In this document: one piece after another, positions 35,665 through 37,410 of the stretch | Layout of the letters: every line of letters starts with the position of its first letter | How positions within the stretch are numbered: position 1 is the stretch's first letter | Source: Escherichia coli | GTDB taxonomy: Bacteria; Pseudomonadota; Gammaproteobacteria; Enterobacterales; Enterobacteriaceae | Length of the DNA: 64,000 nt | Reading direction: 5' to 3' (one strand) | NCBI RefSeq assembly: GCF_009931435.1 | Contig: NZ_CP043414.1 | Translations under genes and position numbers: made by a program | The notes under the pieces: generated by a model | What the model was told of the DNA's origin: nothing | The model's database searches: none | What the model saw: only the letters and a program-made list of their open reading frames with translations

Positions 35665-37410
35665 TTATGCAGTGTGAGTTCTATTCTTCCACCCCCATTT
35701 TTCTATTACTGTTCGTAAATTTTCCGGAGGATTTAATTTTTCTAACTGTTTTTCATTAATATAATTATATATATTGATTTTCCCATCCCGGAGGACTTCC
35801 ATCATTCTTGTTCTAATTTTTAATTCATTAACCATCTTTTCTTCAAAAATCTTAACGACATAACCCGGAAATTTATTTACAATTTCTTTTGTTTTTTCTT
35901 CATCACCATAAACATATCCTAACTCATTAAGATACAGCTGTTCGCCCTCATAACACTTAAGTAATTGATAGAAGTACCACTTAGCAAAATCAGGTTGCTT
36001 CATGAAAAAACCCTTCAAAAAAATATCATTTACTAAAATGCTGACAGGCACTTCATTAAATAGCAACTTAACATCATCAAATAACTTTAGTATTAAGCGT
36101 GATTTTTCTTGATTGCTTAAGTTAAAATCATTGACATATGCAACCAACTTATCCCAAATCAATTCCTGTAATTTACGGCTATTTTTATAGGGTTCTTTAT
36201 CGAGATTGAAAAATAAGGTCTCAGCTATTTTAGATTGATTGCAATCAAAATCAATATGACTCATCACGGAGCATGCATGCGTTATCTTTTCAGAATCACC
36301 AAAATATTGCATACTTTTATTAAAACACCAATCCAGTATTCTTACATCATTAATATATGGGAATTTTGAAAAAGTCTCCAGAATCGAATCGATGACCGGT
36401 GTAAGGTTAACCTTTGCATCATCTAAGGAATCAATAAGAATATGAGACAGATTAACTTTGATTTCATTAATTTCATTGTTACCTACTTTGTCATTATCAA
36501 TTCCGTGATCATTTAATGCGTAGAGCTTATCTATTTCTTCAAGTATACCATTTTCGCCCAGTAAGTATGAAATCGATTCACTACATACATGAGGCATTAA
36601 TAGCAGATGTTCGTTCCTTATTGCTAATAATGCATTATTCAATGGTTTCTCTAATAAATCCGCAATCGTAGAATCAACTGAACCTTTACAACTCACCTGC
36701 AAGTTATTTAAGTCCTGAGAGTTATTAAACTCCTGAGAATCATTTAACTCCTGTGGATTATTTAACTCCTGCGAATTATTTAAATCCTGTGAATTATTTA
36801 ACTCCTGCGAATTATTTAACTTCTGACGATTATTTAACTTCTGATGATTATTTAATAGACGAGCTATTTCCTTGTTAGATTCACTTTGGTAACACGCCAG
36901 AATCTTGTTAGTAATCAGGTGTAATGAACTCTCATCTTTTCTTTCAAAGGACTTTCCTTCATAACGATTAGTCGAACCATCAGGTTGTTGAAATATAATA
37001 GCCGTATGTCCTTGACGAGTCCCCATAGTAGTAATAGTGGAAAGTGTAATTTCTATTTCCACCTTAGATAAATCCGCTCGTTCCCCTTCAGGATTATTCA
37101 TAACAAACTTCATTATCTCACTGCCATCATTATTTTTGATATAAGATGAGGACTCAATATGAGCCATCATATTTCTTCCCGCTTCGTTGGAGCGTTTGCT
37201 AAAATCCACATAACCCAGGGTAAATATTTTTACCAAAAACTCCAAAAATGTCTTAGGATCAAGGATATTTCTTGTATTATCCTGCCCCTCGGCATTACGG
37301 GCAAAATTATTCATTCCAACACGCCAGGTATTTAAAACTTCACTTTTTTGTTTAAAATTGTCGGCTAATGTAATGTGTTGAGAATAATTCAAATCTGATA
37401 TTTTGCTCAT
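35665..37410 (-). CDS. yjgL: Uncharacterised protein with internal hexapeptide tandem repeats
   Basis: 581 aa; NNSQEL-type repeats encoded by 18-bp tandem repeats; position matches K-12 yjgL. Confidence 0.75.
   Translation of the reverse strand: MSKISDLNYSQHITLADNFKQKSEVLNTWRVGMNNFARNAEGQDNTRNILDPKTFLEFLVKIFTLGYVDFSKRSNEAGRNMMAHIESSSYIKNNDGSEIMKFVMNNPEGERADLSKVEIEITLSTITTMGTRQGHTAIIFQQPDGSTNRYEGKSFERKDESSLHLITNKILACYQSESNKEIARLLNNHQKLNNRQKLNNSQELNNSQDLNNSQELNNPQELNDSQEFNNSQDLNNLQVSCKGSVDSTIADLLEKPLNNALLAIRNEHLLLMPHVCSESISYLLGENGILEEIDKLYALNDHGIDNDKVGNNEINEIKVNLSHILIDSLDDAKVNLTPVIDSILETFSKFPYINDVRILDWCFNKSMQYFGDSEKITHACSVMSHIDFDCNQSKIAETLFFNLDKEPYKNSRKLQELIWDKLVAYVNDFNLSNQEKSRLILKLFDDVKLLFNEVPVSILVNDIFLKGFFMKQPDFAKWYFYQLLKCYEGEQLYLNELGYVYGDEEKTKEIVNKFPGYVVKIFEEKMVNELKIRTRMMEVLRDGKINIYNYINEKQLEKLNPPENLRTVIEKWGWKNRTHTA
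36703..36862. repeat. About nine tandem copies of an 18-bp unit inside yjgL encoding NNSQEL-type hexapeptide repeats
   Basis: Repeated attatttaactcctgcga-like units visible on the plus strand. Confidence 0.8.

Follow-up and report, generated by a model that had tools for sequence, protein, structure and literature searches.

The yjgL locus and its product

In the 64-kb stretch of Escherichia coli DNA analyzed here (the window), an open reading frame on the minus strand at 35665–37410 encodes a protein of 581 aa, followed by a stop codon. The gene order around it is tabA-yjgL-argI(argF)-rraB, which is the same in K-12 and in R32_14_1F, the closest complete genome with 99.7% nucleotide identity to the window. 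The ORF is assigned to yjgL, known as icaR or gem3 in Shigella, because it is placed between tabA and argI as in K-12. The ornithine carbamoyltransferase gene next to it is argI and is named argF by PGAP. The protein is 78% identical to K-12 YjgL along its entire length, and this similarity together with the position between tabA and argI establishes orthology within the YjgL/IcaR family. The gene is an AT-rich islet consisting of a single gene, with 29–37% GC against ~50% in the flanks.

Two parts of the protein flank a repeat tract. The N-terminal domain (residues 1–181; 36868–37410, minus strand) is the better-conserved half, and the C-terminal all-helical region (residues 239–581; 35668–36696, minus strand) is weakly constrained. 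In comparisons of the window allele with five other alleles, dN/dS was 0.16–0.53 for the N-terminal domain and 0.67–0.84 for the C-terminal region. The dN/dS of the neighbouring argI is 0.017.

Searches against Pfam, NCBIfam, PDB and Foldseek gave no fold assignment for YjgL. The SopA central domain of Pfam (PF13981) matched residues 318–379 below the gathering threshold (E = 4.6e-4, 21 bits vs 27); this sub-threshold match falls outside the repeat tract. The NCBIfam search and the sequence-profile search against PDB returned no match, and the Foldseek search of the YjgL model against PDB returned no match below E = 0.1. Many yjgL alleles carry the name "DNA-binding protein". This name is not supported by any DNA-binding family of Pfam or NCBIfam, PDB sequence match or fold match.

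A HMMER search run exhaustively against 1.8 billion representative proteins yielded 72 matches, nearly all of which are fragments of the query with high identity. The YjgL family appears to be narrowly distributed, as judged from this library, which carries no organism names. The only distant match that could be placed in a genome, P0128, is a syntenic ortholog with 49% identity. It has no repeat array and is split into three ORFs. Another match, P0189, was dismissed as a homologue; it matches only via an unrelated acidic/Gln-rich repeat, which is a low-complexity similarity.

An in-frame array of 18-bp units

Tandem Repeats Finder (TRF) detected a single array in the gene at 36704–36855, with a period of 18, 8.4 copies, 85% matches, no indels and a score of 192, and no other substantial tandem array across the 64-kb window. 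When the codons of the gene were shuffled (n = 200), the best TRF score was 60; thus, composition and chance do not account for the array. Counted in frame, the tract is 159 nt long and is read on the minus strand from 36855 to 36697. It is composed of eight full units and a last unit of 15 nt, and corresponds to YjgL residues 186–238. The units are, in frame order, LNNHQK, LNNRQK, LNNSQE, LNNSQD, LNNSQE, LNNPQE, LNDSQE, FNNSQD and LNNLQ, and the encoded hexapeptide pattern is LNNxQ(E/K/D). The initial annotation had described about nine near-identical 18-bp units encoding NNSQEL-type hexapeptides at 36703–36862. The number and the type of the units agree with the in-frame reading, and the coordinates are a few bases off the in-frame tract at 36697–36855.

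The protein lengths given in that annotation, 581 aa for the window and about 604 aa for K-12, are also correct. The yjgL gene of DH5a, taken as the K-12 copy, is 1815 nt long, which corresponds to 604 aa. The difference between the two lengths is mainly due to four extra repeat units in K-12. The protein alignment shows 13 units in K-12 and 9 units in the window (+24 aa), and near the C-terminus K-12 YjgL shows a further +2 and −3 aa relative to the window, giving a net difference of 23 aa.

An AlphaFold2 model, based on an alignment of 16 sequences, is of low confidence (mean pLDDT 52.7, pTM 0.34). In this model, residues ~50–175 form an alpha/beta domain with pLDDT of 66–86. Residues 182–254, located between the better-modelled N-terminal domain and the helical C-terminal region, have pLDDT of 23–47, and the repeat tract is modelled as partial helix and coil with no beta structure. 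The model is consistent with the tract being a flexible or disordered Asn/Gln-rich linker between two domains. The left-handed beta-helix formed by the "hexapeptide repeat" of bacterial transferases was considered and rejected, with no Pfam match to it and no beta-helical model over the repeats.

Identity with published typing loci

The yjgL tract is a long-known variable-number tandem repeat (VNTR) marker, in routine use since ~2003–2007 under the names VNTR-34/O157-34/Vhec2/TR6 and CVN002. VNTR-34 (alias Vhec2 and TR6) has an 18-bp unit inside ORF Z5865 (PMC3321953, Table 1). Another study lists the alias O157-34 in addition to Vhec2 and TR6, and describes point mutations between units (PMC3768571). 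Its use in multilocus VNTR analysis (MLVA) of O157:H7 goes back to Lindstedt 2003, Noller 2003, Keys 2005 and Hyytia-Trees 2006 (cited in PMC3321953 and PMC3768571). It is an O157 locus of PulseNet with amplicon sizes of 170–314 bp (PMC8461963).

The VNTR-34 primers, taken from Table A1 of PMC3321953, bracket the array in the annotated yjgL of O157:H7 strains Z869, WS4202 and OK1. This mapping is the basis for equating Z5865 with yjgL. In O157:H7, the forward primer matches at 25 of 27 positions and the reverse primer at 30 of 32, and the mismatched positions are all terminal. The O157:H7 genomes give amplicons of 225 and 261 bp, inside the published range. In the window, the position homologous to the forward primer is 36883–36909 on the minus strand (23/27, four mismatches), and that homologous to the reverse primer is 36685–36716 on the minus strand (27/32, five mismatches). 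The latter shares sequence with the last repeat unit and with the codons for VSCKG. VNTR-34 and the window tract thus share the gene, the 18-bp unit, an array between the primers and a polymorphic copy number. They differ in that the window carries a non-O157 allele, in which the primer sites are changed at four and five positions and the composition of the units is different.

CVN002, a locus of the generic E. coli/Shigella MLVA scheme (Lindstedt 2007; Lobersli 2012; used in PMC8143711 and PMC3519732), is the same tract, with an 18-bp unit and primers on both sides. Its primers and the formula for allele number, (product − 272)/18, are given in Table 1 of PMC8143711. The site of the reverse primer is at 36554–36574 on the plus strand with no mismatch, and that of the forward primer is at 36948–36969 on the minus strand with one mismatch. 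The expected amplicon at 36554–36969 is 416 bp, or 272 + 8 × 18, and corresponds to allele 8. The numbering of the scheme is one unit below the count based on codons (8 vs 9).

Copy number among E. coli genomes

For the census of copy numbers, the tract was removed from the query, and flanks of 300 + 300 nt were compared with 5,426 complete E. coli genomes. The tract length was obtained from the span of each flank match, so the ranking of genomes is independent of tract length. With the tract left in the query, up to six matching places per genome had resembled paralogs; with the tract removed the maximum was two, so that most of the additional places were register-shifted alignments of the repeat rather than further gene copies.

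With the flanks of the O157 allele, the best 60 genomes show 100% identity in both flanks and contain 6–12 units, with a diversity of 0.69; the genomes sampled in this census are phylogenetically non-independent. Nine units are the most frequent (27 genomes), followed by 11 (17 genomes), 10 (10 genomes) and 12 (3 genomes), and 6, 7 and 8 units are each seen in one genome. The published values for 202 German EHEC O157 isolates are 4–12 repeats, 8 alleles and a diversity of 0.66 (PMC3321953), and the published diversity ranges from 0.62 to 0.66 (PMC3321953, PMC3768571). The census for the window allele was likewise made with the best 60 matches. In four genomes, the flanks are at least 99.7% identical and enclose 9, 9, 11 and 9 units. 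Among the other 56 genomes, whose flanks are ~96–97% identical, 48 contain 9 units, 4 contain 10, 3 contain 8 and 1 contains 7. All 120 spans differ by exact multiples of 18, which preserves the frame. The copy number is therefore not invariant across strains; it varies from 6 to 12 units between flanks with 100% identity in O157-type genomes.

Sequence checks agree with the lengths deduced from the spans, and the differences consist of whole units. EDL933 (12 units), WS4202/OK1 (11), Z869 (9) and MB9-1 (6) differ in how many identical LNNLQK, LNNIQx and LNNSQE units they contain, and all six O157-type tracts checked by sequence show gain or loss of exact unit copies. The tract of MB50 is the window tract with exact duplications of units 5 and 7. 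Two exact duplications separate ECA64 (14 units) from DS566 (12 units). Arrays of 8 or 7 units occur in proteins that, outside the tract, are 1–6 residues different from the window YjgL. The suggestion in the initial annotation that the tract is prone to copy-number change is thus borne out by the census, by the MB50 duplications and by the published use of the locus as a VNTR.

Across the whole species, the array is often short or missing. In a sample of 60 genomes spread evenly down the E. coli ranking, roughly 28 have 3 units, 16 have a single LNNHQ and no array, and 15 have at least 8 units; the sampled K-12 derivatives all have 13. Alleles without an array, which account for about a quarter of this sample, and the array-less 49%-identical ortholog from outside it indicate that the array is a lineage-specific expansion and is dispensable. 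Published CVN002 data for non-O157 STEC include 1–3 repeats and null alleles. These values are consistent with the two classes that have 3 units or no array, and also with the ~11% of genomes in which no match to yjgL was found.

The consensus LNN/DxQ(E/K/D) is kept in every allele examined. The 9-unit array of the window and the 9-unit array of O157 have different unit compositions. The same number of units in two allele families is a case of size homoplasy.

Divergence and decay of yjgL

Selective constraint on yjgL in E. coli is weak. The gene is frameshifted, contains stop codons, is split, or is interrupted by an IS in many E. coli genomes, and disrupted copies are also described in PMC3486847 and PMC9241512. 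Alleles with at least 99% nucleotide identity to that of the window are present in 3 of 4818 genomes. The two halves of yjgL have different nearest relatives, which suggests mosaicism of the allele.

Relation to IcaR of Shigella

The Shigella ortholog is better characterized. The icaR (gem3) gene of Shigella flexneri is chromosomal and activated by MxiE/IpgC, and its product is secreted by the type III secretion apparatus (T3SA) (Silue et al. 2022, PMC9241512; PMC9769918). Shigella IcaR is encoded at the same locus as yjgL, is likewise AT-rich and has an N-terminal region highly similar to that of K-12 YjgL, and it is truncated by an IS, leaving a product of 31 kDa (PMC9241512). Type III secretion via an N-terminal signal is experimentally supported for Shigella IcaR alone, and the evidence for MxiE dependence and secretion comes from Shigella IcaR and a few E. 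coli promoters, which belong to alleles other than that of the window (PMC9241512).

The orthologs of icaR have low GC contents and are widespread in phylogroups A, B1, D and E (PMC9241512). The same paper reports that "internal additions" of IcaR/YjgL tend to follow phylogroup, with no mention of a VNTR, and its authors consider that icaR is possibly silent and neutral in E. coli without mxiE/ipgC. The "internal addition" is the O157 MLVA locus and the CVN002 tract.

Upstream of yjgL in the window, the MxiE-box consensus GTATCGTTTTTTTANAG was not matched within three mismatches. The best candidate upstream is AGAGCGTTTTTTGATAT at 37469–37485 on the minus strand, which by eye agrees with this consensus at 12 of 17 positions.

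Origin and maintenance of the copy-number polymorphism

The yjgL tract is very probably an in-frame VNTR that changes by slippage or unequal recombination, is near-neutral, and is a known typing marker. The array most likely started from a single LNNxQx motif that expanded in the segment linking the alpha/beta domain at the N-terminus to the helical C-terminal region. Whole 18-bp units would then be gained or lost by replication slippage at neighbouring units that are identical or nearly so, or by unequal (sister-strand) recombination between them. Each change would add or remove six residues in the flexible Asn/Gln-rich linker and would never turn the gene off. Such length polymorphism would be nearly neutral in a weakly constrained and often disrupted gene.

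The initial annotation had named slipped-strand change as the mechanism. The whole-unit, exact-copy variation expected from it is observed; slippage itself is what we infer from this pattern of changes on otherwise identical DNA. An 18-bp unit is divisible by 3, so the frame is always kept. For this reason, and with all span differences being multiples of 18, a contingency locus of on/off phase variation is ruled out.

The purity of the array differs among alleles. Exact self-matches at a lag of 18 extend to 51 nt for O157 and to 41 nt for DS566; those of K-12 and the window reach 17 and 16 nt, respectively. At a lag of 36, the longest exact self-match of the window tract is 27 nt. Judging from its shorter exact self-match at lag 18 (16 vs 51 nt), the window allele should be less mutable than the O157 allele. 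A lower mutability of the window allele is in keeping with a family in which 9 units prevail.

An alternative is that old allelic differences in length have been shuffled by homologous recombination of diverged yjgL alleles, with no ongoing slippage. The alleles are indeed unusually diverged, as seen in the 78% protein identity between the window and K-12 and in the 3 of 4818 genomes with a closely similar allele. The large classes (1, 3 and at least 8 units) go with allele families, the nearest relatives of the two gene halves differ, and the internal additions tend to be conserved within phylogroups (PMC9241512). However, recombination of old alleles fails to explain 6–12 units between 100%-identical flanks of 300 nt on each side in clonal O157:H7. 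It also fails for the exact-copy duplications seen between MB50 and the window and between EDL933 and Sakai-like strains. It is refuted as the sole explanation and accounts for the differences between allele families only; we consider a history with no ongoing slippage to be quite unlikely.

It is also conceivable, but very unlikely, that the length is tuned adaptively, with the unit number selected for the spacing of domains in a type III secretion substrate or for variation of an exposed epitope; the tract would then be a contingency-type locus for protein length. In favour of this, Shigella IcaR is activated by MxiE/IpgC and secreted by the T3SA (PMC9241512, PMC9769918), and the hexapeptide consensus preserved in all alleles examined could reflect some selection on the peptide and not recent expansion alone. 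All unit changes keep the reading frame, but this is automatic for an 18-bp unit. Against adaptive tuning, many E. coli have no array or only three units, and the gene is often a pseudogene with dN/dS near 0.7–0.8 in its C-terminal half. In Shigella itself an IS truncates IcaR, and the authors of PMC9241512 suggest neutrality for E. coli that have no mxiE/ipgC.

In-frame minisatellites in coding sequences are found in other bacteria, such as the repeats of alpha C/Rib proteins in group B streptococci and those of YscP, the ruler of needle length in Yersinia. There, gain or loss of whole units keeps the frame and alters protein length, with a demonstrated phenotype. To our knowledge, no phenotype of repeat length is known for yjgL, unlike alpha C/Rib and YscP. 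Since yjgL is weakly constrained and often disrupted, its length polymorphism is most likely near-neutral.

There is a slim chance that the array works as a spacer in a type III secretion substrate, setting the distance from the secretion-competent N-terminal domain to the helical C-terminal region, or that it is a recombination junction of mosaic alleles, with the unit number selected for this role. A spacer or junction would be in keeping with the different relatives of the gene halves and with the conserved LNNxQx consensus, but neither observation requires one.

An artefact of sequencing or assembly that collapsed or expanded the array in the window can practically be dismissed: tandem repeats are open to mis-assembly, but the 159-nt tract is shorter than typical reads, the same 9-unit tract is present in three independent complete genomes with flanks at least 99.7% identical, and 14 contigs encode an identical protein of 581 aa.

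Implications

The tract in yjgL is a validated typing marker, and its copy number places the strain in MLVA nomenclature, with 9 units by codon count and CVN002 allele 8. Differences in YjgL length between strains are explained without implying loss of function. The present analysis unifies the O157 MLVA locus, CVN002 and the internal addition of IcaR as one tract, shows the size homoplasy between allele families, and shows that the name "DNA-binding protein" has no domain support. The tract opens no new biological question unless the length of the linker matters for IcaR/YjgL as a secretion substrate. If the array does act as a spacer or a recombination junction, the number of units would be functionally relevant in Shigella, EIEC or E. 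coli bearing a type III secretion system (T3SS).

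Divergence and possible mosaic structure of yjgL

The divergence of yjgL is unusually high for an E. coli gene in a syntenic position. The YjgL protein encoded in the window (35665-37410, minus strand) is 78% identical to that of K-12, and an allele with at least 99% nucleotide identity to the window allele is found in only 3 of 4818 genomes. The window allele was compared with five other yjgL alleles (L001, L003, L006, L008, and L011), and the two halves of the gene have different nearest relatives. For the N-domain, the nearest alleles are those of TUM20902 and O157, with dS of ~0.06. 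For the C-region, the nearest is the 3-unit allele of strain 98218, with dS of 0.09, and the values for the others range from 0.19 to 0.26. The junction of the two halves is the site of the repeat tract. At the sequence level, yjgL looks like a mosaic gene. Besides the yjgL tract, the sole TRF match in the window is at 57079-57114 (18-19-nt unit, 1.9 copies, score 58), and it is probably trivial.

A syntenic yjgL ortholog, 49% identical and flanked by tabA and argI, is present at 6001-7588 of region L014 (GCA_028622315.1, CP117580.1). It is AT-rich (32% GC) and has no hexapeptide array, but a single INNLNK motif instead. The ortholog is broken into three ORFs, and a weak SopA-central match lies in the middle one.

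In the E. coli genome set, yjgL matches are also observed in three places on plasmid-labelled records, one of which, H194 (TUM2805), is 655 kb long. Such records may represent pieces of the chromosome, or replicons that were labelled wrongly.

Annotation and upstream region of yjgL

In RefSeq and UniRef, many yjgL alleles carry DNA-binding or CCAAT-box-type names. No DNA-binding domain was detectable in YjgL by Pfam, NCBIfam, PDB sequence, or fold searches. The CCAAT-box name may originate from Asn/Gln-rich low-complexity similarity.

The consensus of the MxiE box is GTATCGTTTTTTTANAG. It was not found upstream of yjgL when up to 3 mismatches were allowed. A candidate MxiE box, AGAGCGTTTTTTGATAT, which matches the consensus at 12 of 17 positions, is located at 37469-37485 on the minus strand; it is followed by a T-run and lies ~60-75 nt 5' of the yjgL start codon. 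This candidate may correspond to the conserved MxiE box of icaR, the Shigella counterpart of yjgL (PMC9241512).

Neighbouring genes

The position of yjgN, occupied by a member of the DUF898/YjgN family in K-12 and L014, contains a 407-aa ORF in the window, encoded on the minus strand at 31988-33211. This ORF coincides with the second region of high AT content in the window (~32300-33350, 33-39% GC).

The adjacent housekeeping gene argI (34603-35607) differs from that of K-12 at 3.3% of nucleotides, with dS of 0.15 and dN of 0.003. This divergence seems high for E. coli. Diverged yjgL alleles may have carried argI along by hitch-hiking, or the host lineage itself may be divergent.
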